From assembly GCA_026390345.1 (NCBI GenBank), contig JAPLGD010000072.1, positions 1,128 through 65,127 of the forward strand: a DNA stretch of 64,000 nt, in the 5' to 3' direction. This document shows, one piece after another, positions 2-57,508 of this stretch (the stretch's first letter is position 1; the number at the start of each line of letters is the position of its first letter). The notes below the pieces were generated by a model. That model searched no databases and had not been told where the DNA came from. It saw only the letters and a program-made list of their open reading frames with translations. The position numbers were made by a program, and so were the translations under genes. This DNA is from Candidatus Bipolaricaulota bacterium. Lineage in GTDB: Bacteria > Bipolaricaulota > Bipolaricaulia > UBA7950 > UBA9294.

Positions 2-856
2 GCGATGTACGAGGCGGGCAAGCTCGACGTCGATGACAACCCGCCGCTCGAGGACATGGACCGGATCAAGACCGACCCCGTCCTATCCAAGGAGCTGAAG
101 CAGGCGCCGCGGCTGTGCACGTACCGCTACGGACTCAACTCCTCGAAGCCGCCGCTCGACAACATCAACGTCCGCAAGGCACTGGCCTCGTCGGTCGACC
201 GACAGTCGCTGATCGACAACGTCCTGAAGGGGAACCAGCTGCCGGCCCAGACCTGGACCTGCCCCGGCATGTTCGGCTACGTGGACGGCGTGGCCCTCGG
301 GATTGGCTACCCGTTCGACCCCGAGGCAGCAAAGCAGTACCTAGCTGACGCAGGGTACCCGGGCGGCGTGGGCTTCCCTGAAGTCACCATCATGGTGAAC
401 ACGAGCCAGGGCCACCAGAAGATCGCGGAGTTCGTCGCCAAGGGCTGGCAGGACACCCTCGGCATCAAGGTGAACATCACGAACCAGGAGTGGGGCGTGT
501 ACCTCAACACCTGCTCCGTGGACGCGCCGCAGGTCTTCCGCATGGGATGGTGCGCAGACTACCCGGACGCCAACAACTTCATGAACGACGTGTTCCATTC
601 GGGCTCGGGGAACAACTACGAGAAGTACAACAACCCCGCGTACGATGCGCTCGTCGAGAAGGCCGCCGTGTCGACCAACGAGGACGAGCGTCTCGAGCTC
701 TACAAGCAGGCCGAGACCCTGATCTGCGACACGGACGTCGCGTTCATCCCGATCTACTTCTACACGTTCAACCAGCTGACGAAGCCCTACGTGGTTCGCA
801 CGTTCGCTTCGATCGGCGGCGAGTCGTGGAAGAACTGGGACATCCTTGACCATTAG
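2..856 (+). CDS. ABC transporter substrate-binding protein, family 5 (peptide/nickel). The 5' end is truncated by the window edge; only the C-terminal 283 residues are present.
   Basis: ORF 5..856 sits in the same frame as the window start. The C-terminal region has the typical family-5 SBP pattern (GWCADYPDANNF, NPAYDALVEKA). It is followed by two DppB/DppC-like permease genes. Confidence 0.8.
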   Translation, partial: AMYEAGKLDVDDNPPLEDMDRIKTDPVLSKELKQAPRLCTYRYGLNSSKPPLDNINVRKALASSVDRQSLIDNVLKGNQLPAQTWTCPGMFGYVDGVALGIGYPFDPEAAKQYLADAGYPGGVGFPEVTIMVNTSQGHQKIAEFVAKGWQDTLGIKVNITNQEWGVYLNTCSVDAPQVFRMGWCADYPDANNFMNDVFHSGSGNNYEKYNNPAYDALVEKAAVSTNEDERLELYKQAETLICDTDVAFIPIYFYTFNQLTKPYVVRTFASIGGESWKNWDILDH

Positions 857-7841: not shown

Positions 7842-7911
7842 GAACCCCGTTCACCGACGAGGCTCGGCTCCCGGACCTCCGTGCGATTCGTAACGCGGGA
7901 GACGATCTCGC

Positions 7912-12218: not shown

Positions 12219-12301
12219 GGGACTCGCGATTCCGAAGTGCGGCCATCGGGCGCGTCGTCTGGCAAAAAAGCAGAACCCAAGTGCGGTGCAGTGCGGTCCA
12301 C

Positions 12302-12330
12302 TTGATTCAGTATCACCACAACTCTACACT
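12302..12330 (+). promoter_or_regulatory. Promoter TTGATT-17nt-TACACT for the second peptide ABC operon.
   Basis: Read at 12302-12307 and 12325-12330 in a locally AT-richer intergenic region. The -10 context TACACTGC is shared with the promoter at 21920. Confidence 0.4.
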
Positions 12331-12433
12331 GCTGTCGAAGTTCCCTCTCGATTGCCATCCCACGGAAGGGGAGGTGACGTTCGCGTTTGGCTTCTCTGGT
12401 AGAGCGGAAGGAACATCTCTAAGGGAGGTTCAG

Positions 12434-14035
12434 ATGGGAAGAAAGGGAAACTGGCTAGTACTTGGGCTCGTGGTGTCCCTGGTCATCGGCATGGCTTCCG
12501 TGGGGTTCGGAGCGACGGACAAGTTGATCTATCTGTTCTACGGCGAGCCTGGTGAGGCTGACCCTGCTACAGCGTACGACATGCGCTCGTCGACACTGAT
12601 CAACAACGTCTATGACCGTCTCCTGACGTACGAAGGGAGCGATGCAACGAAGTTCGCGCCGATGTTGGCCGAGCGCTGGGAAGTGTCGGCCGACGGAAAG
12701 ACGGTCACGTTCCACCTCCGGAAGAACGCGACGTTCCACGACGGCTCGCCCCTGACGGCGGAGGATGTGCGCTACTCGTTCAACCGCGTTCTGACGATGA
12801 ACCAACCGCCGTCCTGGATGCTGTCGCAGATGATGAACCAGGATAGCACCGTGGTCGTTGACCCGTACACCATCGAGGTCCACTTGACGCAGGCGTACGC
12901 CGCTGCCCTGGGCGTGCTGACGCACACCGTCGCGTCGATCGTCAACTCGGCGGTCGTCGAGGCGAACGGCGGCATCGTCGCCGATCAGGAAAACACCTGG
13001 ATGAACCAGAACGAGGGCGGCGCCGGATCTGGACCGTACACGCTGAAGGAATGGATCCCGGCCGAGAGACTCACGTTCGAACGGTATGACGGCTACTGGG
13101 GCGCGAAGGCGCTGACGAAGACGATCGAGTGCCCCATCGTCCCTGAGGTCGGAACTCGCGTCCTCATGCTGCGGGCAGGGGATGCCGACGTCCACGACCA
13201 GTTCCCGGAGACGAACGTCGCTGACCTCGAAGGCGCTCCGAACCTGACGATCCTTACTCCGGCCACGTTCAACATCGACTTCATTGCGTTGGGTTGCCGC
13301 GGCCCGATGGCTGAGAAGGCCGTCCGCCAAGCGGTGTCCTACGCGTTCCCGTACGCCATGGCGCTTGAGTTCGTCTACAACGGACTCGCGATCCGATCCA
13401 CCGGCCCGATTCCGTCGGGGATGTTCGGCTACGTCGACCCTGCGGCCGACGGACGGTACGAGTACAACATCGTCAAGGCGAACCAGCTCCTGGACGCGGC
13501 CGGCTGGACTTGGGTTGCCGGTCAGGGCTACCGTGTGAAGGCCGGCGTAGAGCTTGGAATGGAGGTCTTGGCGCCGATCGGCGAGGAAGTCAAGATGCAG
13601 GAAGCCCTGCTCTGGCAGGACAGCCTCCGGCAGATCGGCTTTAACCTGAAGATCCGAGAGATCGTGTACGCCATGATGTACAGGACCGTCCGCAACCACG
13701 ACACGGACGGCATCATGTCGGGCTGGCTACCGGACTACGCGGACCCGGACAACTACGTTGACGCCATCTGCAACTCAGGAAACGCCAACGCCATCTACGG
13801 GAACCAGTACAACAACCCGGCAATGGATGCCCTGATCTTGCAGGCGAAGTCCGAAATCGACGTGGCGAAGCGTGCCGGCCTGTATCGGCAGATCCAGGAG
13901 ATCTCGTTCCAGGATGCGCCGTACATCTGGGTCTCCCAGCGGTCGAACGTTGTCATCCTCAACAACGCCGTGAAGGGCTTCTACTACAACCCGATCCTTC
14001 CGATCGACTTCGCGACGCTGTACAAGGAAGGCTAG
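12434..14035 (+). CDS. ABC transporter substrate-binding protein, family 5 (peptide), with a Sec signal peptide.
   Basis: RBS AAGGGAGG then ATG 12434. Signal MGRKGNWLVLGLVVSLVIGMASVGFGATD. Family-5 motifs (GSGPYTLKEW, GWLPDYADPDNY). Confidence 0.85.
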   Translation: MGRKGNWLVLGLVVSLVIGMASVGFGATDKLIYLFYGEPGEADPATAYDMRSSTLINNVYDRLLTYEGSDATKFAPMLAERWEVSADGKTVTFHLRKNATFHDGSPLTAEDVRYSFNRVLTMNQPPSWMLSQMMNQDSTVVVDPYTIEVHLTQAYAAALGVLTHTVASIVNSAVVEANGGIVADQENTWMNQNEGGAGSGPYTLKEWIPAERLTFERYDGYWGAKALTKTIECPIVPEVGTRVLMLRAGDADVHDQFPETNVADLEGAPNLTILTPATFNIDFIALGCRGPMAEKAVRQAVSYAFPYAMALEFVYNGLAIRSTGPIPSGMFGYVDPAADGRYEYNIVKANQLLDAAGWTWVAGQGYRVKAGVELGMEVLAPIGEEVKMQEALLWQDSLRQIGFNLKIREIVYAMMYRTVRNHDTDGIMSGWLPDYADPDNYVDAICNSGNANAIYGNQYNNPAMDALILQAKSEIDVAKRAGLYRQIQEISFQDAPYIWVSQRSNVVILNNAVKGFYYNPILPIDFATLYKEG

Positions 14036-20705: not shown

Positions 20706-21806
20706 TCAGTCATCTTCACGCCCTCTTGCCTGCCGAGCTGGATTCGGCGGCACCTGCCCGGGTACCGAGCGTCCGGGTTCGCTGGCACCGGGTACAAGCG
20801 TCGATCCAAGGAGAAACCCGTCCCTCAATGGATCGTCGGAGTCGATCACGAACTCGTGACGCCCGGTCACGAAGGCGCGGCCCGAGATCTCAGGAACGAC
20901 CGCCGCGTGGTCACCGACCTGGGTCTCCTCGACGAGGCGACCGGTGAGCGTGGTGCCGATCAGGCTCTCGTGAACGAACGGCTCGTCGAGGTCGACCTCG
21001 CCCCGCGCGTAGAGGATCGCTAGACGAGCCGCCGTCCCGGTGCCACATGCGGATCGGTCGATCGCACCCGGCGGGATGACGACGGCGTTGCGGCCGGAGA
21101 CGTCGGGGTTGTCCGAGGGGGCGGTGAACTGAACGTGGGTGATCTCGTCGACCCACGCGAACTCGGGGTGGTGAACGAGAAGCTGCCGCCTCGCCGCCTC
21201 CCGCACGGCAATCCCCACCCGGACAATGTCGGAAGCGGAACTCGGAACGAGCCGCAGGCCGAAGCACTTCGCATCGACCGAGACGTACACGTTGCCACCG
21301 TACGCGACATCGACGTCCACCCTGCCGAAGCCGGGAATGTCGACCGGCGTGTCGAGCGTGAAGACGAACGCAGGGACCGAGCGGAACGAGACCCGCACGG
21401 CTCCTCCATGGTCGATGAGAACCCGAGCCGTGACGAGTCCGCCGGGCGTGTCGAGAACGACGGAAGTCTCTCCCGAGCCTCGAATCAGGCCGGCCTCGAC
21501 CAAGGCCGTGCAGCACCCGATCGTGTCGTGCCCGCACATCGGCAAGTACCCGCCGACCTCGACAAAGACGGCGCCGAAGTCCGCGTCGTGGCGACAGGGT
21601 TCCGTCAGCACGACGGCGGACATGACGCTGTTCCCCCGCGGCTCGTACACGAGGGCGGTGCGAATCCAGTCCATGTGCCTGCGAAGGTACAGAGCGCGCT
21701 CTGCAATGCTGTCGCCGGGAATCGCGGGCAGCCCTGAAAGGATCGTGCGCGTCGGCTCACCGCCGGTATGGGTGTCGATCGCTACGATGCGCTGTGTGTG
21801 AGCCAC
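20706..21806 (-). CDS. Proline racemase-family enzyme, Cys/Cys type (4-hydroxyproline epimerase or proline racemase).
   Basis: N-terminus VAIDTHTGGEPTR. First catalytic Cys in MCGHDTIG, second in DRSACGTGTAA. There is an apparent C-terminal extension of about 30 residues beyond the family end (DPLRDGFLLG). Confidence 0.8.
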   Translation of the reverse strand: MAHTQRIVAIDTHTGGEPTRTILSGLPAIPGDSIAERALYLRRHMDWIRTALVYEPRGNSVMSAVVLTEPCRHDADFGAVFVEVGGYLPMCGHDTIGCCTALVEAGLIRGSGETSVVLDTPGGLVTARVLIDHGGAVRVSFRSVPAFVFTLDTPVDIPGFGRVDVDVAYGGNVYVSVDAKCFGLRLVPSSASDIVRVGIAVREAARRQLLVHHPEFAWVDEITHVQFTAPSDNPDVSGRNAVVIPPGAIDRSACGTGTAARLAILYARGEVDLDEPFVHESLIGTTLTGRLVEETQVGDHAAVVPEISGRAFVTGRHEFVIDSDDPLRDGFLLGSTLVPGASEPGRSVPGQVPPNPARQARGREDD

Positions 21807-21896
21807 GGTCTCCCTTTCACTGTTCCGATCGCGCTGACGAGACGGTAGAAGCGGCGCTCCGCCTTGTCAAGCATCTCGCCGGAACGAGCGTGCAGT

Positions 21897-21925
21897 TTGT
21901 CGGTATACGCCGTTTCACCTACACT
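21897..21925 (+). promoter_or_regulatory. Promoter TTGTCG-17nt-TACACT placed 8 nt upstream of the regulator ATG. This gives a leaderless or near-leaderless transcript.
   Basis: Hexamers at 21897-21902 and 21920-21925. The start codon at 21934 has no RBS upstream. Confidence 0.4.
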
Positions 21926-21933
21926 GCATCAAC

Positions 21934-22536
21934 ATGGAACCCGTAGGGCAGCTCATTCGCGACCTCCGTGCGGAGAAAGGATGGACGTTGAAGGAACTCG
22001 CATCGAAGTGCGAGCTCTCAACCAGCTTTCTCTCGCAGGTCGAGCGCGGCCTCTCCTCGGTGTCGATCACGTCTCTCCACGTCATCTGCCAGGCTCTCGG
22101 GATGACGCTGGGCGAGTTCTTCCACCAGCTCGGAGACGGTGTCGGGCAGCCCGAGACCGAAGGGCGAACGCTCGAGGTCATGAAGGCGAAAGACCAGCGG
22201 GCGATTAACCTGTCGGAGGCATCCATCAAGTACCGCTTTCTCAGCCGTGAGTTTCCCGGTCGGCAGTTCGAGATCATGCTCGGGGAAATCCCGTCGGGCT
22301 ACTTCTATCCGCCGTTCTCCCACGAAGGCGAGGAGTTCGGCTACGTCCTCGAAGGCCAACTGCGACTCACGATCGGCGACGATACCTACACCCTTGGCCC
22401 CGGAGACAGCTACCACTTTGCGGCGTCGACGCCCCATGGATACCAGGCGGAGGGCGACGCAGCCGTGCGGATCCTGTGGGTTCAGACCCTGAAGTACTTC
22501 CAGACCCGCGATGGCATCCCGGCCCAGCAGGAGTGA
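21934..22536 (+). CDS. XRE-family HTH transcriptional regulator with a C-terminal cupin domain.
   Basis: N-terminus LRAEKGWTLKELASKCELSTSFLSQVERG (HTH_XRE). C-terminal cupin (FSHEGEEFGYVLEGQL). It is a paralog of the regulator at 43039..44115. Confidence 0.8.
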   Translation: MEPVGQLIRDLRAEKGWTLKELASKCELSTSFLSQVERGLSSVSITSLHVICQALGMTLGEFFHQLGDGVGQPETEGRTLEVMKAKDQRAINLSEASIKYRFLSREFPGRQFEIMLGEIPSGYFYPPFSHEGEEFGYVLEGQLRLTIGDDTYTLGPGDSYHFAASTPHGYQAEGDAAVRILWVQTLKYFQTRDGIPAQQE

Positions 22537-24644: not shown

Positions 24645-27011
24645 CTACGCCTCGCTGTGCGCGGTGCGGGCGATGACCTCCTCCTGCAACGCCCGGTCGA
24701 GGGCGTGGAAGTAGTCGCTGTACCCGGCCACTCGAACGATCAGGTCTCGGTACTCCTCCGGGTTCTCCTGCGCACGCCTCAACGTGGCGGTATCGACGAC
24801 GTTGAATTGGATGTGGTGGCCATCGTACCGGAAGTACGTCCTCACGATCGCCGCCACCTTCCGCAGCCCCTCCTCGTCCTTGAGGACGTCAGGAAGGAAT
24901 CGCTGGTTGAGGAGAGTGCCCCCCGTGCGGACGTGGTCGATCTTCCCCACGGAGCGAATGACGGCCGTCGGTCCGTGCGTGTCGGCCCCCTGCGTCGGCG
25001 AGATCCCGTCGGACAGTGGAATCCCGGCGCGGCGGCCGTTCGGTGTGGCACCGACCTTCTCACCAAAGAAGACGTGGACCGTGGTCGGCAGGAGGTTGAC
25101 GCGGTGCGCGCCGCCCTTCGTGTTCGGCCGCCCGTCGATGGCATCGAAGTACGCGTCGAAGATCCGCCGCGCGATGTCGTCGGCGCGGTCGTCGTCGTTG
25201 CCGAAGAACGGGGTCTCGTGCACGAGCAGGTTACGCTCGGCGTCGTGCCCCGCGAAGTCAGCCGCGAGGACTCGAAGCAGGCGGTCCATCGAGAAAGACT
25301 TGCGCACGAACACGTGCTCGCGGATCGCCGAGAGGGAGTCGGTCGCTGTCCCCATCCCGACCCCCTGGATGTACGTCGACTTGTACCGCGGACCCGAGCC
25401 GTTGTAGTCCTGGCCCTTCTCGATGCAGTCGTCGACGAGCACCGAGATGAACGGAGCGGGCATGTGCTCGGCGAAGATTCGCTCAATGCGACCGTTGCCC
25501 TCGACCTTGACGTCCACGAAGTGGCGAAGCTGCTTCTCGAACGCGTCGAAGACCTGCTCGAAGCTCTCGAACGTGCGCGGGTCGCCCGTGCTCGGCCCGA
25601 TCCGACGGCCGCTATTTGGGTCGACGCCGTCGTGGAGCGCCAGCTCGAGGAGCTTCGGCCAGTTCATGTAGCCGGTCAGAATGCAGCTCTCCTTGCCGAA
25701 CGCGCTGATCTCGACGCAGCCGCTCGGCCCGCCGGAGCGGGCGTCACGTAGGCTCTTTCCGACGCGCAGGAACTCCTGCACGATCGCGTCCGTGTTGAAG
25801 ATCGACGGCTGGCCGAACCCCTTCCGAATCACCTCGAGGGTCCGGAGCAGGAATCGGTCAGGGCTCTTCTTTGAGAGCTGCACGCACGATCCGGTGTACG
25901 GGAGCCGCATCTCCTCGATCACGTCAAGCACGAGGTAGGACAGCTCGTTGACGGCGTCGGCTCCGTCCGGGGTCACGCCTCCGACGTTGATCAGGGTGAA
26001 GTCGTTGTACGTCGCGCTCTGCTCTTCCGTCACGCCGACCTTCGGGGGTGCTGGTTGGTTCGAGAACTTCACCCAGAAGCACTCGAGCAGCTCCTTCGCG
26101 CCGTCCCGGGTCAGCCGGCCTGCGTCGACGTCCCGCCGGTAGAACGGGTACAGGTTCACGTCGAGACGTCCCGGGTTGTAGGAGTCCCACTCGTTCAGCT
26201 CGGTGACGACGCCCAAGTGGACGAACCAGTACATCTGCAACGCCTCGCGGAACGTCCGCGGAGCGTGGGCCGGTACCCACGAGCAGATCTCGGCAATCTC
26301 GAGCAGCTCGGCGCGGCGCGCTGGGGTCTTCGCCTCGCCTGCCATGCGCCGCGCGAGATCGGCGTACCGCCCGACAAGTCGGATGAGCGCGTCGCAGACG
26401 ATTTCCATCGCGTCGAGTTCGTCGACCCGCGCCGCGCGGTCCGCAACGTCGGAGGTTCGGAAGCGGTCCCGTGCTTCGGCAATCCGTGCCTTGAAGTCGA
26501 GGAAGCCATGGCGATAGATCTTGTCGTCGAGGATTGCGTGGCCTGGCGCCCGCTGCTCCATGAACTCCGTGAACACCCCCGCGTCGAACGCCGCGTGCCA
26601 GTCTTCGGACATCGCCGCGAACACCCGCTCGCGGAGGCTCTTTCCTTTCCAGAAGGGGATGATCCTCGACTCGTACAGCGTCTTCGTCGCGTCATCCACG
26701 AGGAACGGCGTCTTCCGGCGGGTCGAGAGGACCCGAAGATCCTCGAGCGAGTGGCAGCACAATTCGGGGTATGTCGACGTCGCGCGGGGCCGCGGGCCCC
26801 TCTCGCCAACGATCAGCTCGTCGTCCCCGATGTAGATCGTTTCGTTCTCGAGGATGTAGCGGAATCCCCGTGCGCGATGGACAGGAACGGACTCGCGTAG
26901 GGTCGCACTCTCGCGCTCGAAGCGCGTCAGGAGTTCCGCGCGTTCGCCGCTCACGCTCGGGCGGGTCGTCACGCATTCGGTTCGCAACCGCTCCACTCTC
27001 TCGTTCATCAT
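24645..27011 (-). CDS. Glycyl radical enzyme of the dehydratase/eliminase class, most similar in architecture to trans-4-hydroxy-L-proline dehydratase (HypD).
   Basis: 788 residues. C-terminal glycyl radical motif IVRVAGYSDYF. Active-site Cys loop GCVE (GGPSGCVEISAFG) as in HypD, CutC and glycerol dehydratase. PFL-like fold length. Confidence 0.85.
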   Translation of the reverse strand: MMNERVERLRTECVTTRPSVSGERAELLTRFERESATLRESVPVHRARGFRYILENETIYIGDDELIVGERGPRPRATSTYPELCCHSLEDLRVLSTRRKTPFLVDDATKTLYESRIIPFWKGKSLRERVFAAMSEDWHAAFDAGVFTEFMEQRAPGHAILDDKIYRHGFLDFKARIAEARDRFRTSDVADRAARVDELDAMEIVCDALIRLVGRYADLARRMAGEAKTPARRAELLEIAEICSWVPAHAPRTFREALQMYWFVHLGVVTELNEWDSYNPGRLDVNLYPFYRRDVDAGRLTRDGAKELLECFWVKFSNQPAPPKVGVTEEQSATYNDFTLINVGGVTPDGADAVNELSYLVLDVIEEMRLPYTGSCVQLSKKSPDRFLLRTLEVIRKGFGQPSIFNTDAIVQEFLRVGKSLRDARSGGPSGCVEISAFGKESCILTGYMNWPKLLELALHDGVDPNSGRRIGPSTGDPRTFESFEQVFDAFEKQLRHFVDVKVEGNGRIERIFAEHMPAPFISVLVDDCIEKGQDYNGSGPRYKSTYIQGVGMGTATDSLSAIREHVFVRKSFSMDRLLRVLAADFAGHDAERNLLVHETPFFGNDDDRADDIARRIFDAYFDAIDGRPNTKGGAHRVNLLPTTVHVFFGEKVGATPNGRRAGIPLSDGISPTQGADTHGPTAVIRSVGKIDHVRTGGTLLNQRFLPDVLKDEEGLRKVAAIVRTYFRYDGHHIQFNVVDTATLRRAQENPEEYRDLIVRVAGYSDYFHALDRALQEEVIARTAHSEA

Positions 27012-27012
27012 C

Positions 27013-27957
27013 CTATCCCCCTATCGTTACCGGCAAGCTCGTCGCAGCACGAACGGCCGCGACTGCGTCCTCGATCGTCTCTGGGTCGGATGGAAGCACG
27101 CCGGGAAGCTCATAGCGTCTCCCCAAGTGTGCGAACTTCCGCTCCCCCGCGGCGTGGTACGGGAGGATTTGCACGGCCTCCACGCCAGGAAGTCGCGAGA
27201 CGAACCGCCCGAGTTCCCTCAGGTCCCGCTCCGAATCGTTCACACCGGTGATCAACGGATACCGGATCCAGACGCGCTTCCCATCCTCCGACAGGCAGCG
27301 GAGGTTCGCGAGAATCGTCGCGTTCGAGACGCCCGTCCACCGACGGTGCCGCTCGTCATCGAGCAGCTTGATGTCGTACAGGAAGAGATCGGTGTGGGCC
27401 GCCACCGCAGCAAGGGCTGGCTCGGCGGCGAAACCGCATGTGTCGACCGCCGTGTGGATCCTGCGCTCCTGGCACGCCTGAAGAAGCTCCGCGGCAAACT
27501 CTGGTTGCGCGAGCGGCTCGCCCCCCGACAGCGTGACGCCTCCCCGCGACTGATCGTAGAAGAGCACGTCGCGGTCGATTTCGGAGAGGAGGTCGTCAAT
27601 CGTGCGCGTCGAGCCGACGATTGATCGTGCTCGAGGGACGCACGCTGCGACACAGGCGCCGCAGGCCGTGCAACGGGTCCGGTCGGTCTCGGGCTTTGCG
27701 GCGGTCGACGCACGGGCGATTGCCCCATGGGGGCACGCCGAGACGCACGCCCCGCAGGCGACGCACCGCTCGCCCCAGAAGAGGAGCTCCGGCCCTCGCT
27801 CCTGGCTCTCCGGGTTGTGGCACCACGCACAGCGCAGGGGACAGCCTTTCAGGAAGACCGTGGTGCGTACGCCCGGGCCGTCGTGGATGGCAAAGCGCTT
27901 GAGGTCGAAGATGGTCCCGGTTCTCGACGCCGTTACAGTGGCACTGCACGTTCTCAT
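27013..27957 (-). CDS. Glycyl radical enzyme activating enzyme (radical SAM, with additional ferredoxin-like Cys clusters).
   Basis: Trimmed to ATG 27957 (MRTCS...GTIFDLKRFAIHDGPGVRTTVFLKGCPLRCAWCHNPES). CxxxCxxC motif plus CVACGACVSACPHG and CTACGACVAAC inserts. The 120-codon upstream extension of the ORF is out-of-context read-through and was rejected. Confidence 0.85.
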   Translation of the reverse strand: MRTCSATVTASRTGTIFDLKRFAIHDGPGVRTTVFLKGCPLRCAWCHNPESQERGPELLFWGERCVACGACVSACPHGAIARASTAAKPETDRTRCTACGACVAACVPRARSIVGSTRTIDDLLSEIDRDVLFYDQSRGGVTLSGGEPLAQPEFAAELLQACQERRIHTAVDTCGFAAEPALAAVAAHTDLFLYDIKLLDDERHRRWTGVSNATILANLRCLSEDGKRVWIRYPLITGVNDSERDLRELGRFVSRLPGVEAVQILPYHAAGERKFAHLGRRYELPGVLPSDPETIEDAVAAVRAATSLPVTIGG

Positions 27958-28049
27958 GCCCTCGTCCCCTTCGATCCGTGCTCGCCGATCCGCAGAGAAA
28001 CGATACGTCGAGATCCGAACGGATGCAAGGGCATGCGCCGGCTCTTGTA

Positions 28050-28063
28050 GTGTCACTGAACAC
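28050..28063 (-). promoter_or_regulatory. Operator-like element GTGTTCAgTGACAC inside the hyuB/activase intergenic gap. It shares the GTTCA and GTGACAC half-sites with the regulator promoter at 44136-44190.
   Basis: Motif read on the minus strand at 28050-28063 (plus strand gtgtcactgaacac). A 145 nt gap is unusual inside an otherwise overlap-coupled operon. Confidence 0.3.
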
Positions 28064-28102
28064 GAGGATTCAAGGGGCGGGATCGCCCTAGGCTGGCGCA
28101 GT

Positions 28103-29932
28103 CTAGGGCGTCGCCTTGGGAACCCTAGGCTTGGCTTTGGAAGCCTTGGGGTTCTCCTTGGAAGCCGTAGGGCTCCCCTCGGAACCCGCAGGGTTCCCTT
28201 TGGCCCGACGACGTTCGGTCGCACGGGCGTCGACGGCAAGGGCAAGGGGGTCTCCCGCGAGCACGACGCCGTAGACGCAGTCCGCTGCCTCACGGGACAC
28301 GTACCCGTTCTCGACATCGGCTCGGACCGCCTCCGGGGGACGCGTCATCGGATCGCCATAGCCGCCGCCCGTGCCCGTGATGAAGCGAACCAGGGTTCCG
28401 GCGGGCATGACTTCTCCGGACAAACGTCCGCGCCGGTCGATCCGGCCGTCGGGGTAGTAGACCTCAACACCGTTCGTGGACCCGTCGTGGCCGCCCGCGA
28501 ACCCCCACGGCGGGTACAGGTGGCGGCCGAAGCTCGCGGTCACCGACGCGCGTGAGTTCCGGATGCGGTAGTCCTTGACGATGCCGAGGCCGCCGCGCCG
28601 TGCCCCATGCCCGGCGTCCGCAGCGTGGAGCGCGAACTGTTCCACGAGAAGCGGGTAGCGCGTCTCGGCGACCTCGGCGGAGAGGATGTACGTCTCGCCG
28701 TCGTTCGTACAAACGAGGGCGCTCTCCCCGTCCTTTCCCGCGGCCGCGCCCCACCCCCCCGCGTTGGGCTCGACGGAGAAGAACCACTCCCCCGTCTCGT
28801 CGGAAATCCCGCTGACGGTGGTCCCGCAGACCGAGAGGAAGTGGCCGGCGGGGATCCGGTCTGGAAGCGCCGCCGCAAGCGCTCTCCAGATGACGTCCCC
28901 GGAGTAGGCGTCCGACTCCCAGTAGGTGCTGATCGGGGCCGGGCGTTTCGGATTGAACACCGTGTCCTCGGGCACCACGATCCGAAGGGGAGCGAAGAAG
29001 CCCTCGTTCGGCGCCGCGTGGGGCGAAAGCACGCTCTGGTACGCGAACTTCACCGTGCTGATCAGAACCGAAAGCGGGCAATTGATCGGCCCGGCGCACG
29101 TCTTGCCGGTCCCCGTGAAGTCGACGACGAACTCGTCGTCGCTGAGGGTGACGCGGACGTGCACGGGGACCGGATCACCTCCGAGGCCGTCGTCGTCAAT
29201 GAACTCCTCGGCTTCGTAGACGCCGTGAGGCAGAGACCGGAGCTCCGCAAGGGCGTGGCGCCGACCCTGGTCGATCGAGATCTCGATGGCCTCGAGCACC
29301 GCCTCGACGCCGAACTTGCCGCACAACTCGGCCACGCGCCGGGCCGCGACGTGGAGCGACGCCGCCTGAGCGCGCATGTCGCCGAGGGTCAGCTCGGGAG
29401 CTCGCACGTTGCGGGCCACCATCTCAACGATGTCCTCGACCTCCTCGCCGGCGGAGACGAGGCGGACAACGGGAAACTGGATCCCTTCCTGATAGATGTC
29501 GGTGGCGCTCGGGGACCAGCTCCCGGGGTCCTTGCCACCGACGTCGTTCCAGTGTGCCTTGCTCGCCGCGAACAGGACCAACTCGCCGTTGAAGAAGACG
29601 GGCGCGACGAGAACAACATCGTTCTGATGCGTGGCGCCGCCCATGTACGGATCGTTGGTCATGAACACATCGCCGGGCCGAATGCGCCCGCGGAACTTGG
29701 CGAGCACGTCGCGGACGGCGTCGGTCAGAACCCCAATGAACGGCGGGATGCCGTTCGCCTGGGCGACCATGCGGCCCGCGCGATCGACCACGGCGCACCC
29801 GTAGTCGAGGACCTCGTAGATGACGGAGCTCTTTGCGGTGCGTCCGAGCGCCACAAACATCTGCTCCGCCGCAGAGACGAGCGCCCGCTTGATGACTTCG
29901 ACGGTGAACAGATCGACGGAGCGCGCGGTCAT
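28103..29932 (-). CDS. Hydantoinase B/oxoprolinase family protein (HyuB-like subunit) with a Lys/Pro-rich C-terminal tail.
   Basis: Trimmed to the ATG overlapping the hyuA stop (ATGA). N-terminus MTARSVDLFTVEVIKRALVSAAEQMFVALGRTAKSSVIYEVLDYGCAVVD. The 489-codon upstream extension of the ORF was rejected. The tail is KGNPAGSEGSPTASKENPKASKAKPRVPKATP. Confidence 0.85.
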   Translation of the reverse strand: MTARSVDLFTVEVIKRALVSAAEQMFVALGRTAKSSVIYEVLDYGCAVVDRAGRMVAQANGIPPFIGVLTDAVRDVLAKFRGRIRPGDVFMTNDPYMGGATHQNDVVLVAPVFFNGELVLFAASKAHWNDVGGKDPGSWSPSATDIYQEGIQFPVVRLVSAGEEVEDIVEMVARNVRAPELTLGDMRAQAASLHVAARRVAELCGKFGVEAVLEAIEISIDQGRRHALAELRSLPHGVYEAEEFIDDDGLGGDPVPVHVRVTLSDDEFVVDFTGTGKTCAGPINCPLSVLISTVKFAYQSVLSPHAAPNEGFFAPLRIVVPEDTVFNPKRPAPISTYWESDAYSGDVIWRALAAALPDRIPAGHFLSVCGTTVSGISDETGEWFFSVEPNAGGWGAAAGKDGESALVCTNDGETYILSAEVAETRYPLLVEQFALHAADAGHGARRGGLGIVKDYRIRNSRASVTASFGRHLYPPWGFAGGHDGSTNGVEVYYPDGRIDRRGRLSGEVMPAGTLVRFITGTGGGYGDPMTRPPEAVRADVENGYVSREAADCVYGVVLAGDPLALAVDARATERRRAKGNPAGSEGSPTASKENPKASKAKPRVPKATP

Positions 29933-41004: not shown

Positions 41005-43046
41005 CGCTCCTCCTCGTGGATCGAGACAATCAGGGTTCCGTAGTCATCGACGCGGCAGACTTGCTTCGGCTCGACCGTCGTGGTCGCTGTGACCTCCTCG
41101 ATCAGCGCCGGGCCGTCGATGACGTTCTGGGCGAGGAGCCGCTCGCGACGGTAGATCGTGAACGGCTGATGGCGGCCGCTTCCGACGTACACGGGACGCT
41201 CTCCCATGCGGGCGTCGGCAGGCGGCGTCTTCGAACCCGTCTGGATCTTCTCCAGCACCGGCTTGTTGACGCTCCCGATCCCGATCACCTTGAGCGAGAC
41301 GATCTCCTTCTCCTCCTCGGGGGCGTTGTGGCCGTACACCCGGAGATGCATCTCGTCGAACGCCGCCGCCAGGCCACGCTTCGCCGTCTCGGTGACGGGG
41401 CACGTAGCGCCGACCGCAAGCGTGTGCTCCTGGCCGATGTAGCGCAGATCCAGTTGGTACGACATCGTGATCTGCTTCTTGTCGATGTTCTCCTTCCTGA
41501 ACACCTCGCGGATCTTCTCCTCGAGCGAGGCGAAGGTGCCGTTGAGCTCGCCGATGTCGGCGGAGCGCAACGGAGCGATGTAGGTTTGGCCGAGGTCGTG
41601 GCGCAGGTCGGCCATGAGCATGCCCCACGCCGAGAAGACGCCGGAGTACGGCGGGACGATCACGGTCGGGATGTGCAGGTCCTTGGCAATCGCCGCCGCG
41701 TGGATCGGGCCCGCCCCGCCGAACGCGACCATCGCGAACTCGCGCGGGTCGTAGCCTCGCTTCACGGTCATCGACTGCAGAAGACCGGACATGTTCGTGT
41801 TGACGATCTTGACAATTCCCAACGCGGCCTCATCGACGGAGAGGTCGAAGTGATCGGCCACCTTCTTGATCGCGTCGTGCGCGTGGACCTTCGAGATCTT
41901 CATTTCCCCGCCGAGGAAGTAGTCCGGATCCAGAATCCCGAGCTGCAGGTTAGCGTCCGTGACCGTCGGCTCGGTGCCTCCGCGCAGGTAACACGCCGGT
42001 CCCGGCACGGCGCCCGCACTCTGGGGACCGACGTGCATGGCGCCCGCTTCGTCAATCCAGGCGATCGACCCTCCTCCTGCTCCGATCTCGCGCAGGTCCA
42101 CGACGGGAAGCAGGATCGGTCGGCCCTCCACCACGTACTGCTCGGCCGTTTCGGGGAGCCCGCCGGTGATGATCGACGTCTTCGCCGTGGTCCCGCCCAT
42201 GTCATACGAGATCACGTTGGCGAACCCGGCGAACTTCGCAAGTTGGGCGGCTCCGATGGCTCCGCCCGCCGGACCGGACTCCACCATGGCGATCGGCATG
42301 TCACGGGCCACCGACGCCGCCATCACGCCGCCGTTCGACTGCATGATCTGCAGGATCTGGGTGAAGCCGCGCTTCCGAAGATCGTCCTCGAGCTGGTTCA
42401 GGTATAGCCGAACGACTGGCATCACGTAGGCGTTCTGCGTCGCCGTGCTCGTTCGTTCGAACTCGTAGTAGCGTCGAGTGATGAGGTGGGACAAGGACAC
42501 CGTGACCCCGGGAAGCCGCCGGCCGAGGAACTCGCCGATCGCCGTCTCGTGCTCCGGGTTGGCATACGCGTTGAGCAGGCACACGGCCACGGACTCCACC
42601 TTCTCCCGGACAAGAACGTCGATGAGGCTGTCCAGGTCTTCCTCGCGCAGCGGCTCCACGACGCGCCCCTCCGCATCGATCCGCTCGCGCACCTCGAGTC
42701 GAAGGCGTCTCGGCACGAGCGGGCGCGGCTTCGCATAGAGCGCGTCGTACATCTCCGTCCGGTTCGAGCGGCCGATCTCGAGTACATCGCGGAAGCCTTG
42801 AGTCGTGATGAGGGCCGTCTTCGCGCCCTTCCCCTCGATTAGGGCGTTGATAACGACCGTTGTGCCGTGCGACAGGAACGAGGCATCCCGCAGAGGAACG
42901 TTCCACTTCTCGATGCACTCGATGGTCCCGATCGCGGGATTGTGGGGCGTGGAAGAGACCTTGCTGAGCCTGATCTTCCCTGTTTTCTCGTCGAGGAGTA
43001 CACCGTCGGTGAACGTCCCCCCCACGTCCGTGCTGAGCCTATACAT
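41001..43046 (-). CDS. Hydantoinase A/oxoprolinase family protein (HyuA-like), second copy.
   Basis: Trimmed to ATG 43046 (AGGAGG 6 nt upstream; MYRLSTDVGGTFTDGVLLDEKTGK). 681 residues. Confidence 0.85.
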   Translation of the reverse strand: MYRLSTDVGGTFTDGVLLDEKTGKIRLSKVSSTPHNPAIGTIECIEKWNVPLRDASFLSHGTTVVINALIEGKGAKTALITTQGFRDVLEIGRSNRTEMYDALYAKPRPLVPRRLRLEVRERIDAEGRVVEPLREEDLDSLIDVLVREKVESVAVCLLNAYANPEHETAIGEFLGRRLPGVTVSLSHLITRRYYEFERTSTATQNAYVMPVVRLYLNQLEDDLRKRGFTQILQIMQSNGGVMAASVARDMPIAMVESGPAGGAIGAAQLAKFAGFANVISYDMGGTTAKTSIITGGLPETAEQYVVEGRPILLPVVDLREIGAGGGSIAWIDEAGAMHVGPQSAGAVPGPACYLRGGTEPTVTDANLQLGILDPDYFLGGEMKISKVHAHDAIKKVADHFDLSVDEAALGIVKIVNTNMSGLLQSMTVKRGYDPREFAMVAFGGAGPIHAAAIAKDLHIPTVIVPPYSGVFSAWGMLMADLRHDLGQTYIAPLRSADIGELNGTFASLEEKIREVFRKENIDKKQITMSYQLDLRYIGQEHTLAVGATCPVTETAKRGLAAAFDEMHLRVYGHNAPEEEKEIVSLKVIGIGSVNKPVLEKIQTGSKTPPADARMGERPVYVGSGRHQPFTIYRRERLLAQNVIDGPALIEEVTATTTVEPKQVCRVDDYGTLIVSIHEEER

Positions 43047-44115
43047 TGCTTCCTCCTGATGGTCGAGGTTTCGGATGACCGACCCCGGTCGTCCCCTGCA
43101 GAGAGTTCTCCGTAGCCGCCTGCCACGCCCGCTCCGTCTCGATCGACCCGGGGGCCGATCGAGCCAGGAGCAGCTTGGCTCCCCCGTTCTGCGTCGTCGC
43201 ACAACCTCGGTGACTGAGAGCCGGGAGGTGGTAGCAGTCACCGGATCCGAGGGCGTAGCCCTCTTCTCCGATCGTCAGTTGAATGCGCCCCTCGAGGACG
43301 AATCCGAACTCCTCCCCTTCGTACGCTCCCAGCTCCTGTGAAAAGCCGGATGGGATCTCCGCCACGAGTACCTCCAGCGACCCCGCAGGGAGCGTGCCGC
43401 TCAAGAAGCGGTACGTAACCGTGCTGTCCGAAAGCTTCACGTGATCCGCGCCATCGTCGCCCCCTAGAAGGGGAACCCGCATCTCCTGGGCTCCCGGAAG
43501 GTCGGGGAGTTCGGCGCCCAGAAGCGCGATCGCCTTGGCGTAGCGCGCCGTCTGCACCCACAGCACCTTCGCCGCGGACTCGGCCGCCGCACATCGGTGG
43601 GACGTCGCGGCAAGCAGGTGGTAGCTGTCCCCAACTCCGAGGTGGTGCTCCGCCTCGCCGATCGTCAGGTCGATGGCCCCGTCTAGGACGTAGCCGAACT
43701 CCTCCCCCTCGTGAACGTGGGATTCGTGCGAGCTTCCTTGCGTCATCTCGCCGATCAGCACTTCGAAGCGCCGGCCGGGGAACTCGGCGCTCAAGAAGCG
43801 ATACTTGATGGACGTATCGGACAGGCTGACGTACGAGCGGTTGTCTCCCTTCGTGATCGCCGCGGGGCGCGGATCAGCGAGGAACGCCTTCCCGGGGCCG
43901 TTCGACATCACGAGCATGTCAGCCAAGGCAACATCCAACGCTTCACAGATGGCGCGCAGGGACGGAATGGAGAACGACGACAGTCCACGCTCGATCTGAG
44001 ATAGAAAACCCACCGAGAGACCGCATTGCTCCGAGAGCAAGCGGAGGGTCAACCCACGTTGACGCCGTAGGTATCGTAGTTTGCGCCCAACTTCCTGGAG
44101 GCGTTCAGTCTCCAT
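43039..44115 (-). CDS. XRE-family HTH transcriptional regulator with two C-terminal cupin domains.
   Basis: N-terminus LRRQRGLTLRLLSEQCGLSVGFLSQIERG. Two cupin repeats (HVHEGEEFGYVLDG and YEGEEFGFVLEG). It is a paralog of the regulator at 21934..22536. Confidence 0.8.
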   Translation of the reverse strand: METERLQEVGRKLRYLRRQRGLTLRLLSEQCGLSVGFLSQIERGLSSFSIPSLRAICEALDVALADMLVMSNGPGKAFLADPRPAAITKGDNRSYVSLSDTSIKYRFLSAEFPGRRFEVLIGEMTQGSSHESHVHEGEEFGYVLDGAIDLTIGEAEHHLGVGDSYHLLAATSHRCAAAESAAKVLWVQTARYAKAIALLGAELPDLPGAQEMRVPLLGGDDGADHVKLSDSTVTYRFLSGTLPAGSLEVLVAEIPSGFSQELGAYEGEEFGFVLEGRIQLTIGEEGYALGSGDCYHLPALSHRGCATTQNGGAKLLLARSAPGSIETERAWQAATENSLQGTTGVGHPKPRPSGGSNV

Positions 44116-44121
44116 GAAGCC

Positions 44122-44150
44122 ATTCTAGACGGAGTGTGAACACGGGTCAA
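44122..44150 (-). promoter_or_regulatory. Promoter (minus strand) TTGACC-17nt-TAGAAT ending 6 nt before the regulator ATG. The mRNA is leaderless or near-leaderless.
   Basis: Reverse complement of 44145-44150 (ggtcaa) and 44122-44127 (attcta) with a 17 nt spacer. There is no RBS before the ATG at 44115. Confidence 0.45.
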
Positions 44151-44190
44151 GCCATAGTGAACACCGTTCACTGAAAGTGATCCGTGTCAC
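44136..44190 (-). promoter_or_regulatory. Cluster of operator-like inverted repeats. One GTGAAC half-site lies in the promoter spacer. GTGAACaccGTTCAC (44157-44171) and GTGAtccgtGTCAC (44177-44190) lie just upstream of the -35.
   Basis: Repeats read directly. The classic arrangement for an autoregulated HTH repressor. Confidence 0.45.
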
Positions 44191-44312
44191 GGCGAAACCT
44201 ACCTTCCCAGCGACGGCAACACAGTTCAGAACTGAGAAAGACTGCTACGCGGCAGTTCGACGCCTACTCGGCCGCGTTCGTGGGGAGGGGGTGCTTCTGC
44301 TAGTCCTTCCGC

Positions 44313-44879: not shown

Positions 44880-45058
44880 CGTATTCGATCACCTGGGCGG
44901 AGGCCCGGTCGAGAGCGTAGCAGGCGGCGCGTCTCGGCAGCGTCCCCTGGTTCAAAGGCGGGGAGCGCGCTAGACTGTCGCTTCGTGCGCGCACCGGGCG
45001 CGCTGGATTGCTCATCCTAGGAGGTTCCGGAGATGGGGCAGTAGGGCGGGACAAGGAC

Positions 45059-56511: not shown

Positions 56512-57075
56512 ATGAGAGCGTTCTTCTCTCTGCCCGTTGACGGGGCACTTCGCATGCAGATCGGTCGAGTCGCGGAGCGGCTGCGCCGCGAGACGACCAT
56601 GCCGGCCTCGTGGGTCCGACCCGACAACTACCACGTCACGCTTCGCTTTCTCGGGGAGATCGACCCGGACCTCACCGTGCCCCTCGAGAAGGCCGCGCGC
56701 GGGATCGCCCGGGGATTCGCTCCGTTCACGCTCCGCGTCGACACGCTCGGCGCATTTCCGTCGATCGACCGCGCGAGGGTCTTGTGGGTCGGCGCGACGG
56801 CGGATCAGGCGTTTGGCGATTTTGCCGGGGCTCTCGAGCAACAGCTTCACGGGCTGGGATTCGCGCCCGAGCGCTCCGAGGCCATCGCCCACGTCACGAT
56901 GGCGCGACTCAAGGGACGCCCCGACGCCCGCCTCCCTCGCGTTTTCGAGGCGCTCGGCCCCTTCCCGCCTCACTCGCTTCGCATCGATCGTCTTGTCCTC
57001 ATGGAGAGCCGTCTCTCCCCGCACGGGCCAACGTACGATCCGCTCTTCTCCGTCCCGCTTCGCACGGAGGAGTAG
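56512..57075 (+). CDS. thpR: RNA 2',3'-cyclic phosphodiesterase (2H phosphoesterase, LigT/ThpR).
   Basis: Two H-x-T-x motifs (YHVTLRFLGE and AHVTMARLKG). 187 residues. RBS AAGGGGGAG. Confidence 0.8.
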   Translation: MRAFFSLPVDGALRMQIGRVAERLRRETTMPASWVRPDNYHVTLRFLGEIDPDLTVPLEKAARGIARGFAPFTLRVDTLGAFPSIDRARVLWVGATADQAFGDFAGALEQQLHGLGFAPERSEAIAHVTMARLKGRPDARLPRVFEALGPFPPHSLRIDRLVLMESRLSPHGPTYDPLFSVPLRTEE

Positions 57076-57085
57076 GGGAGCGCCG

Positions 57086-57508
57086 ATGCCCTTCGTCTAC
57101 CTCGATCACACCGCCGACCTGGCCATTCGAGCGTGGGGATCGAGCATCGGCGAGGCATTCGCCCAAGCGGCCCTCGCCATGTTCTCGAAGATGATCCGAA
57201 CCGACCGGGTCCGGCCCATGATCGCGCGTGAGTACACGCTCCAGGCCAACTCGCTCAGAGAGCTTCTCGTCGCGTGGTTGGCCGCGCTCCTCGTGCCGAA
57301 GGACGTTGAGGACCTCGTCTTCTCCCGCTTCGACGTCGATGTGCACACGACAGAGCTCGGGTTTGAGCTTTGCGGCCGAGCACTCGGCGAGCCGCTCGAC
57401 GCCGGGCACCACGAGCCGAGCGGCGAGGTGAAGGGGATCACCTACCTCGGTCTCGACGTCCGCGAGGAAACCGGAGTGTGGTACGCTGAGTTCGTTGCCG
57501 ACGTCTGA
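57086..57508 (+). CDS. Archease (RtcB activator/chaperone).
   Basis: N-terminus MPFVYLDHTADLAIRAWG, the archease signature. 140 residues. It is located directly upstream of rtcB. Confidence 0.85.
   Translation: MPFVYLDHTADLAIRAWGSSIGEAFAQAALAMFSKMIRTDRVRPMIAREYTLQANSLRELLVAWLAALLVPKDVEDLVFSRFDVDVHTTELGFELCGRALGEPLDAGHHEPSGEVKGITYLGLDVREETGVWYAEFVADV

Follow-up and report, generated by a model that had tools for sequence, protein, structure and literature searches.

Two paralogous XRE-cupin regulators, R1 with one cupin domain and R2 with two, are encoded within a 64,000-nucleotide stretch of Candidatus Bipolaricaulota DNA (contig JAPLGD010000072.1; called the window in the following and numbered from its first letter), close to genes for a glycyl radical enzyme, its activase, lactamase-like enzymes, peptidases and peptide uptake. 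From the sequence comparisons presented here we consider it likely that both paralogues control this hydroxyproline and peptide catabolism cluster, that they are expressed from leaderless promoters and that they act through distinct operators; the transcription starts, the pairing of each protein with its sites, repression and the control by ligands are what we infer from these comparisons. The window has a G+C content of about 66%, its genes were mapped by third-position G+C combined with Pfam and NCBIfam searches, and the homologues of its proteins are found in metagenome-assembled genomes of Candidatus Bipolaricaulota (Acetothermia/OP1). Related loci used for comparison are designated by L-numbers. 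The two regulators share 46% identity over 192 aligned aa (E = 2e-56).

Both genes display the same arrangement at their 5' ends. R2 (43039..44115, minus strand, 358 aa) is preceded by a -10 hexamer TAGAAT (44122..44127, minus strand), which ends 6 nt before the ATG at 44115, and by a -35 hexamer TTGACC (44150-44145, minus strand) located 17 nt 5' of it. This is the TTGACC-17-TAGAAT promoter that had been proposed in the initial annotation, and the GTGAAC half-site placed there inside the spacer was also recovered (44136-44141). For R1 (21934..22536, plus strand, 200 aa) a candidate -10, TACACT (21920-21925, plus strand), ends 8 nt before the ATG at 21934, with a candidate -35, TTGTCG (21897-21902, plus strand), 17 nt farther 5', a distance that is kept in every close orthologue, where the hexamer reads TTGATG, TTGATA or TTGATC. 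The absence of a ribosome binding site from both genes, claimed earlier together with the 6-8 nt distance, was confirmed: a clear Shine-Dalgarno sequence precedes about 30 of the 45 window genes, whereas R1 and R2 have TAnnnT 6-8 nt upstream instead. In a promoter scan the R2 promoter scored 10/12 and was the only one found in 43900-45100. The in-frame stop codon of R2 is the TAG inside its -10 hexamer, so that no earlier start is possible. R1 lacks a purine-rich Shine-Dalgarno sequence as well as an in-frame start farther upstream, and its orthologues, with 61-91% identity, all share the same start methionine. A downstream TTG start of R1 at 21988, preceded by GGAGAAAGGA, was rejected, as the DNA-binding domain would lose its helix 1; the conservation of the first 18 residues at the protein level also speaks against this start.

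The leaderless mRNAs claimed for both regulators find their support in the comparison between genomes. Among the R2 orthologues (54-97% protein identity) the arrangement TTGACn-17/18 nt-TAnnnT-5..9 nt-ATG is present in 14 of 14, with a distance of exactly 6 nt in 11 of them, and 20 of 22 R1-type regulators show TTGnnn-16..18-TAnnnT-6..10-ATG without a usable Shine-Dalgarno sequence. Altogether 34 of 36 regulators fit a fixed promoter-to-AUG pattern, the hexamers standing 5-10 nt from the ATG. The specific form TA[CT]ACT occurs 6-10 nt 5' of the ATG in the window and in L174, L175, L161, L164, L167 and L171-173. On both strands of the 64-kb window TTGnnn-16..18-TAnnnT-5..9-ATG was found three times, compared with 0.1 in shuffled sequences (about 30-fold), and two of the three matches are R1 and R2. 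It is therefore very probable that R1 and R2 are transcribed from promoters fused to the start codon. Transcription is predicted to start at the ATG of each gene or at most about 2 nt from it, and the first cistron would lack both leader and Shine-Dalgarno sequence, with normal ones for the cistrons downstream. Gene callers mis-call these regulators, by truncation at an internal MTLR, by loss of the DNA-binding domain or, in one case, by extension to an upstream TTG (409 aa), as is expected where a start has no Shine-Dalgarno sequence.

The third match to the pattern lies on the minus strand at 56365-56402 (TTGTGG, 16 nt, TACAAT, 6 nt, ATG at 56400). This ATG opens a 1439-aa frame with beta-helix, PKD and caspase (Peptidase_C14) domains inside a stop-to-stop frame of 52081..57096, and the true start of that gene may be located there.

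For R2 the leaderless promoter is combined with a conserved operator. The initial annotation had described two inverted repeats upstream of the R2 -35, and both are present. The promoter-proximal one, named site A here (44157..44171), reads GTGAAC-N3-GTTCAC, a perfect palindrome, and lies at -56..-42 relative to the ATG. A second, imperfect copy, site B (TTGACCcgtGTTCAC, 44136..44150, minus strand, at -35..-21), reads TTGACC-N3-GTTCAC, matches site A at 10 of 12 positions and consists of the -35 hexamer itself, which it thereby overlaps, together with a GTTCAC half-site in the spacer. Sites A and B form a 21-bp direct repeat, and this spacing is kept in 12 of 14 orthologues. Site A recurs with at most two mismatches at the same position in 12 of the 14 R2 loci, with one copy per locus, the clade of L083 and L170 having a variant half-site (TTCAC or GTGAAG). 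In site B the TTGAC is invariant and GTTCAC is exact in 11 of 14 loci; L086 reads GTTCAG, and L083 and L170 have TTCAC variants. In an alignment of the R2 upstream regions conservation starts abruptly at the palindrome and runs to the ATG, and is absent farther upstream.

The recurrence of GTGAAC-N3-GTTCAC, for which a scan had been proposed, was followed within the window and the related loci and is found at the R2 promoters of the orthologues. The exact motif has a single occurrence in the window, where shuffled sequences predict 0.01. With at most two mismatches, the first 24 loci contained only two further matches, both intragenic (L005 at 5469, L084 at 1640), and with at most one mismatch a further 213 kb of related loci yielded R2 promoters only. 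Within the window, six matches with up to two mismatches against 2.35 expected represent a marginal excess; those at 4265, 35327 and 51969 are intragenic and were taken as chance. The same judgement was made for the one-mismatch copy GAGAACCCCGTTCAC (7840-7854), which lies on the stop codon of the gene ending at 7841 with no promoter-like sequence nearby. The other gaps of the minus-strand cluster, between prolidase and binding protein and between binding protein and permease, contain no R2 sites but only GC-rich hairpins.

The outer inverted repeat, GTGAcacggaTCAC (44177..44190), has its proximal arm GATCAC 5 nt from site A. In the form GTGAC-N4-GTCAC it is restricted to the window, L001 and L081, the repeat GTGAtccgtGTCAC is conserved in close relatives only, and distant R2 orthologues carry a single GTTCA[CTG] half-site 2-9 nt upstream of site A. 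A third half-site was considered in codons 3-5 of R2 (CTGAAC at +8..+13; CTTCATggagaCTGAAC, 44103-44119, spanning the start codon) and was set aside in favour of the simpler explanation by protein constraint. The R2 N-terminus is conserved as ME[STG]ER, and nTGAAC stands at +8..+13 in 9 of 14 orthologues. Since the Glu-Arg pair persists where the DNA motif is lost (L084, L088), CTTCATggagaCTGAAC is probably a by-product of the ME[ST]ER peptide.

We conclude that GTGAAC-N3-GTTCAC is a real, conserved operator of R2, as read from its sequence conservation. The palindrome and its weaker copy over the -35 fit an autoregulation of R2, and in this respect comparative evidence supports the autoregulation suggested by the initial annotation. 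R2 probably represses its own operon, R2-hyuA-hyuB-DUF3830-prolidase. R2 would head the operon R2-hyuA2-hyuB2-DUF3830-prolidase, which possibly continues into the Opp genes. An R2 dimer would most likely bind the perfect palindrome at -56..-42 and would probably bind the weaker TTGACC-N3-GTTCAC at -35..-21 cooperatively, 21 bp or two helical turns away; occupation of site B would block the -35 and repress the operon until a small molecule bound by the cupins relieves the repression.

In R2, Pfam assigns HTH_3 to residues 13-65 (E = 9.6e-11, above the gathering score) and Cupin_2 to two stretches (83 bits), and a structure model places a helix-turn-helix at 1-60 and cupins at 103-189 and 225-320, with two beta-barrel regions. 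With a mean predicted local distance difference test score (pLDDT) of 65 and a predicted template modelling score (pTM) of 0.58, the model supports the three-domain layout only, linker geometry and oligomeric state not being readable from it. The metal-binding motif G-X5-HXH-X3-E-X6-G is retained in the first of the two cupins. Among 120 listed homologues the two-cupin architecture is confined to Bipolaricaulota-like assemblies. The stop codon of R2 overlaps the start of hyuA2 (ATGTATAG), and the gene order R2-hyuA2-hyuB2-DUF3830-M24, followed by binding protein and Opp genes, is conserved. R1 matches HTH_3 (PF01381, residues 8-62, E = 1e-10, above the gathering score) and a single Cupin_2 (PF07883, residues 119-183, 73 bits). 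Against the PuuR equivalog NF007408 of NCBIfam it reaches 62.6 bits at a cut-off of 211 and is thus not a PuuR orthologue.

Two observations touch on R2 in other assemblies. In L169 (CP070725.1, a 1.73-Mb contig; 8841-12796) the cluster appears degraded, with a 385-aa HypD fragment and a 522-aa hyuA that is directly followed by ribosomal protein genes, and despite this R2 retains an intact promoter with its two operator sites and its leaderless layout. Protein P0005, from an ENA contig of 1602 nt, is R1-like in its first approximately 90 residues and R2-like in the remainder; over its whole length it is 81% identical to R2. This protein is either a genuine recombinant or a chimera of the two paralogues that arose in assembly.

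A second operator class was found at the genes for the glycyl radical enzyme activase (27013..27957, minus strand; TIGR02494 activase subfamily, 357 against a cut-off of 174) and the trans-4-hydroxy-L-proline dehydratase HypD (24645..27011, minus strand). Pfam agrees with both assignments, and HypD matches NF043068 of NCBIfam over its full length (residues 3-786) with 1167 bits against the curated cut-off of 1100. The gap between hyuB1 and the activase gene is indeed 145 nt long (27958-28102) and contains the element GTGTTCAgTGACAC at 28050-28063 that had been regarded as a relative of the R2 operator. Its presence and the size of the gap are as described, but the element belongs to a different class, TnCAGT-N3-ACTGnA. 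It forms part of an upstream operator O1 (GTTCAGTGACACTACAA on the minus strand, 28045..28061); a partner, O2 (GTGCAGTGCCACTGTAA on the minus strand, 27933..27949), lies 112 bp away inside codons 3-8 of the activase gene. Between the two stands a candidate promoter (28000..28028, minus strand) consisting of TTGCAT (28028-28023), 17 nt and TATCGT (28005-28000), with hexamers and spacing identical in the window, L174 and L175. Transcription is predicted to start near 27993, which would give a 36-nt leader with a Shine-Dalgarno sequence, GAAGGGGA. In L175 O1, TTGCAT-17-TATCGT and O2 are all kept although the flanking sequences have diverged. The internal regulated promoter suggested earlier for the activase and HypD genes is in agreement with these conserved hexamers between O1 and O2; a promoter in the 145-nt gap, apparently regulated, is supported, with activase and HypD (24645..27957) as its probable target.

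O1-equivalent palindromes upstream of the activase gene are conserved in L174 and L175 and are also present in L005, L167, L168, L173 and L176, with the upstream form nTnCAGT-N3-ACTGnAn in L005, L167, L168 and L173. A scoring matrix was built from the upstream sites first recognised, before L174, L175 and L176 were added. As matrix matches outside the building set, O2-type sites appeared where the activase coding region begins in each of the five genomes examined at that stage, and L174, L175 and L176, which were examined later, carry the same pair, so that O1 and an O2-type site occur together in eight genomes (the window, L005, L167, L168, L173, L174, L175, L176). Nine new matrix matches with a score of at least 14.4 were obtained in about 365 kb, namely five at activase genes, three at R2 promoters and one 5' of a binding-protein gene beside an R1 orthologue, and none at any other coding position. 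O2 is the sole exact CAGTnnnACTG of the window, and TNCAGTNNNACTGNA with at most one mismatch gives two matches there, O1 and O2, which flank the activase start. The peptide encoded over O2 varies (TCSATV, TCSVTV, AYSGTV, YSNTE, FNTTV, LSICE). Since the peptide changes while the palindrome persists, the constraint on O2 acts on the DNA and not on the protein. The site imposes the codons AGT, ACT and GTA in a genome in which about 85% of the third codon positions are G or C.

With a transcription start assumed 7 nt after the -10, O1 is centred at about -60 and O2 at about +53. The spacing between them is 100, 103, 112 (four genomes), 122 or 132 bp in the eight genomes, which corresponds to fractional helical turns of 0.52-0.81; the phase is weakly common, with p estimated at about 0.03-0.04 from five distinct values, and hints at cooperation or looping. 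Several points weigh against this account of the activase-HypD promoter. TTGCAT is a poor -35 with three of six consensus positions, the matrix was partly built from sites that it scores, the common phase is about 0.6 turn and not a whole number of turns, and the loose pattern GTTCAG-N5-CTGAAC with at most two mismatches gave 13 matches in 365 kb where about 14 are expected, hence no enrichment. This loose pattern was uninformative on its own and was replaced by the position-specific and cross-genome evidence given above.

Structured RNA was considered as an explanation both for the gap and for the region upstream of R2 and was dropped after folding proved no better than that of shuffled sequences (z = -1.31 for the hyuB-activase gap and z = +1.65 upstream of R2). 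An Rfam search of the whole window returned no family at threshold, so that neither the gap nor the promoters contain a known riboswitch or leader RNA. The stop codon of hyuB1 lies within a 12-bp hairpin (CGCCCTAGACTG-cgc-CAGCCTAGGGCG, 28084..28110, minus strand); no U run follows this hairpin, and it is kept in L174 but not in L175. The 3' end of hyuB1 (28084-28200, minus strand) encodes an extra Lys/Pro-rich C-terminal tail of about 30 aa, AKGNPAGSEGSPTASKENPKASKAKPRVPKATP, and the DNA encoding it is rich in inverted repeats.

The promoter of R1 itself carries neither operator in a strong form. The initial annotation had both regulator promoters flanked by GTGAAC/GTTCAC operators; this holds for R2 with its conserved site A, but at the R1 promoter the palindrome is absent, with only GTTTCAC beside the -10. 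The repeat finder returned no palindrome there, and TTTCAC is without an inverted counterpart at a spacing of N3 or N4. The block TTTCACCTACACTGCAT over the R1 -10 (21913..21929) is nevertheless unchanged in the window, L174, L175 and L164 while the adjacent spacer has diverged, and it is possible that it serves R1 as a low-affinity auto-operator.

Which protein reads O1 and O2 was approached through gene neighbourhood. A one-cupin regulator of the R1 type is located within 1-6 kb of activase and HypD in eight of eight genomes, and R2 is missing from several of these loci. The second-class motif adjoins R1 orthologues in L167 and L171. The core AGTGACACT, near-identical to the element at 28050, occurs at three places there: 5' of R1 in L171, 5' of R1 over the -35 of a divergent gene in L167, and in the spacer between R1 and the OCD gene in L167, the corresponding spacer of L171 containing the close variant AGTGTGACT. 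In L092 the regulator gene stands immediately before activase and HypD as the first gene of their operon, and a second-class palindrome covers its -10. Because of this constant proximity, the motif beside R1 in L167 and L171 and the site at the regulator's own promoter in L092, we assign the second operator class to R1-type regulators, a judgement we would place barely on the favourable side of even. R1 would then use the same 4-3-4 site geometry as R2 with another half-site, TnCAGT-N3-ACTGnA. Its two strong sites would bracket the activase-HypD promoter at about -60 (O1) and +53 (O2) and repress it as co-operating operators, possibly via a DNA loop, with a weak second-class copy over its own -10. 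Against this assignment it has to be said that the evidence linking R1 to O1 and O2 is that of gene neighbourhood, that R1 orthologues without a nearby HypD gene (L161-166) have no strong second-class site, and that TTTCACCTACACTGCAT reaches a matrix score of 9.5 compared with about 21 for O1 and O2. Moreover, the recognition helices are nearly alike (STSFLSQVERG in R1, SVGFLSQIERG in R2), and because they differ so little two specificities are not readily explained. For the same reason covariation between recognition helix and operator was given up as a source of information. The R1 hexamers, too, are weak: they agree with the consensus at 8 of 12 positions and failed the promoter scan, so that cross-genome conservation, and not the single sequence, backs the R1 promoter.

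In two loci (L168 at 9934-9959 and L082 at 1892-1917) R2 and an R1-like gene are arranged divergently around a common intergenic region, in which a second-class match with a score of 20, GTTCACTGATACTGAAC, overlaps the left arm of R2 site A. This hints that in such an arrangement the R1-type regulator cross-regulates the R2 operon. In the window, a promoter-like sequence, TTGATTcagtatcaccacaactcTACACTgctgtcgaag (12302-12340, plus strand), lies 5' of the second binding-protein/Opp/M24 operon (start 12434). It is near-identical in L164 although the flanks diverge, it shares the -10 context CTACACTGC with the R1 promoter, and a weak second-class match (score 13.4) is located at 12305; this promoter may be part of the R1 regulon.

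Other explanations have to be weighed for each part of this picture. That the regulators are not leaderless, with transcripts that start upstream or read through from there, initiation without a Shine-Dalgarno sequence on a leadered mRNA and hexamers that are operator sequence only, appears improbable. Translation starts of this kind on leadered mRNAs do occur in bacteria, and the interval between R2 and the flavin reductase gene upstream of it contains no predicted terminator, which weighs against a purely leaderless R2 inasmuch as it makes leadered read-through transcripts possible. However, 34 of 36 deeply diverged regulators keep TTGAC-17/18-TAnnnT at a constant distance of 5-9 nt from the ATG, which is the mark of a promoter fused to the start codon, and neither its roughly 30-fold over-representation in the window nor the lack of conservation upstream of site A fits the leadered alternative. 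We also regard as unlikely, although somewhat less so, that R2 is a dual activator and repressor in the manner of the C proteins, with site A recruiting RNA polymerase to switch the promoter on and site B switching it off at high R2 levels. C-protein systems share the layout seen here, in which a leaderless regulator gene comes first and a strong palindrome lies distal to a weaker one that covers the -35 (PMC2632904), and the R2 helix-turn-helix matches C.BclI in the PDB with E = 3e-6. Yet C-dependent promoters have no recognisable -10 and -35 and need activation (PMC2632904), whereas the R2 hexamers are conserved and score 10/12, which makes activation seem unnecessary, and the characterised XRE-cupin factors are all repressors (PMC7901475). 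Site A is centred near -49; in addition to the points just named, this would be an unusual position for an activator. Simple autorepression is therefore favoured over the C-protein mode, because the R2 promoter is near consensus, unlike C-protein promoters.

For O1 and O2, there is a rather low but real chance that they are bound by a factor other than R1, be it R2, if it has a second specificity, a further XRE-cupin paralogue or a regulator unrelated to these, and that R1 controls only its own operon. The weak second-class match at R1's own promoter, the orthologues in L161-166 without a strong site and the near identity of the recognition helices would all agree with this, as would the good second-class match that overlaps site A at some R2 promoters (L168, position 9934, score 20). 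It is countered by the fact that an R1-type protein is the only regulator near activase and HypD in all eight genomes, by the motif beside R1 orthologues and over the promoter of the activase-HypD operon's own regulator, and by the finding that in the loci scanned the R2-type motif never occurs at the activase gene. The reading of the 28050-28063 element as a chance palindrome or as an RNA hairpin or terminator remnant without regulatory role is strongly disfavoured. In its favour, palindromes that are short and imperfect arise frequently, O1 has an imperfect right arm (CTACAA) in the window, the gap folds no better than shuffled sequence and Rfam gave no match; but O1 is kept in L174 and L175 despite diverging flanks, equivalents with a partner in the activase codons exist in eight genomes, and the same bases (T, CAGT) are kept without covarying, which points to protein binding on DNA.

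Taking R2 as an autorepressor and R1 as the probable reader of the second class, the system resembles several known ones. XRE-cupin factors repress locally, from palindromic sites in the neighbourhood of the genes that encode them (PMC7901475), and autoregulation is common among XRE regulators (PMC12565409). The Pseudomonas XRE-cupins ErfA, PsdR and PauR (Trouillon et al., 2021; PMC7901475) and PuuR of Escherichia coli likewise combine an N-terminal XRE helix-turn-helix with a C-terminal cupin, and like R1 and R2 they are encoded beside genes for catabolism and transport of small molecules or peptides and have local regulons of one or few promoters. PsdR, which controls dipeptide uptake and a dipeptidase, is comparable to the R2 cluster. 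The likeness extends to the palindrome beside the own gene, with one R2-type site cluster per locus here: the R2 palindrome lies at -56..-42, and R1 has a putative weak site on its -10, the strong ones being 5.4 kb distant. Differences are the two cupins of R2, the uncultured phylum and the targets, which would include the glycyl radical enzyme HypD; furthermore, leaderless transcription is unmentioned in PMC7901475. The C proteins (C.PvuII, C.AhdI, C.BclI; PMC2632904) share with R2 an XRE-type helix-turn-helix autoregulator in first position of the operon, a leaderless mRNA and two adjacent palindromes, of which the distal is strong and the proximal, covering the -35, is weak. They are single-domain proteins of about 80-100 aa without a sensor, in contrast to the 358 aa of R2 with its cupin sensor domains, and they are timing devices of restriction-modification systems that activate promoters lacking good -10 and -35 hexamers, whereas R2 has a near-consensus promoter and a metabolic context. 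Domain searches of the window proteins revealed no restriction-modification genes near R2.

The lambda cI gene transcribed from PRM offers a further parallel, with a helix-turn-helix repressor, a leaderless mRNA, adjacent operators bound cooperatively and autoregulation; it differs from R2 as part of the lysis-lysogeny switch of a phage, by another C-terminal domain and by positive autoregulation at low concentration. For O1 and O2 the gal operon of E. coli provides a parallel. Its GalR operators OE and OI are centred at -60.5 and +53.5, the downstream one being inside the first structural gene, and thus occupy nearly the same positions as O1 and O2 (about -60 and +53, 112 bp apart) around a promoter. 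GalR, however, belongs to the LacI family and requires HU for looping, and the loop at the activase-HypD promoter is suggested by geometry and the weakly conserved helical phase.

The minus-strand cluster runs from 44115 to 24645 and comprises R2, hyuA2, hyuB2, a DUF3830 protein, an M24 prolidase, a solute-binding protein with OppBCDF, then hyuA1, hyuB1, the 145-nt gap, the glycyl radical enzyme activase and the glycyl radical enzyme. On the plus strand R1 is the first gene, followed by an OCD/mu-crystallin gene and a proline racemase family gene; divergent from it are a second proline racemase family gene and an M24 peptidase. This second proline racemase family gene (20706..21806, minus strand) has a GTG start at 21806, a GGGAGA Shine-Dalgarno sequence in its leader and a promoter readable from the sequence as TTGACA (21870-21865), 17 nt and TACCGT (21847-21842), together 21842..21870 on the minus strand, with both hexamers kept in L174 and L175. 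Since the glycyl radical enzyme passes the NCBIfam cut-off for trans-4-hydroxy-L-proline dehydratase, a link of the cluster to hydroxyproline or proline is reasonable. The region 18254-44879 as a whole looks like an anaerobic pathway for the utilisation of collagen peptides and hydroxyproline, with HypD and its activase, two proline racemase family genes, an OCD/mu-crystallin reductase, three M24 prolidase-like peptidases, an Opp transporter and DUF3830. One of the proline racemase family genes has its best score with trans-3-hydroxyproline dehydratase, below the cut-off, and the top NCBIfam matches of the two hyuA/hyuB pairs are caprolactamase subunits, far under the cut-off.

The individual parts of such a system are not without precedent. 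Leaderless autoregulated repressors of the XRE type are textbook knowledge, as exemplified by lambda cI and by the C proteins, and expectations are not overturned by our findings. The conceptual gain is modest: XRE-cupin local repressors and leaderless XRE autoregulators are extended to a new clade. What appears new lies in the detail, namely the two-cupin architecture, found within the listed homologues in this clade only, the leaderless expression predicted as near-universal for these Bipolaricaulota regulators, the putative paralogue-specific half-sites on a shared 4-3-4 geometry, and the candidate operator pair around the activase-HypD promoter, one of which lies in codons. For genome annotation, the leaderless anatomy explains why pipelines mis-call these regulators, cutting off the DNA-binding domain or extending the frame, and it provides a correction rule, TTGnnn-17-TAnnnT-6..8-ATG.

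As a tentative and somewhat doubtful extension we propose a system common to the whole family in Bipolaricaulota, in which nearly all XRE-cupins would be leaderless and would share the 4 bp-N3-4 bp geometry with GAAC or CAGT half-sites. R2 would repress the lactamase, prolidase and peptide uptake operon, and R1 would shut off activase and HypD via a gal-like loop that joins O1 to O2, with rare codons in positions 3-8 of the activase gene as the price. In the more restricted form the data seem to describe a well-supported but fairly ordinary bacterial switch, which appears to control genes for the breakdown of hydroxyproline and peptides. Searches of the literature found nothing on leaderless genes in Bipolaricaulota and no described regulator of HypD. 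The present analysis supplies base-precise promoter and operator predictions for genes of an uncultured phylum, including that of the abundant anaerobic enzyme HypD, and the extended circuit proposed above would, if true, be the first model of regulation specific to the glycyl radical enzyme that dehydrates hydroxyproline.

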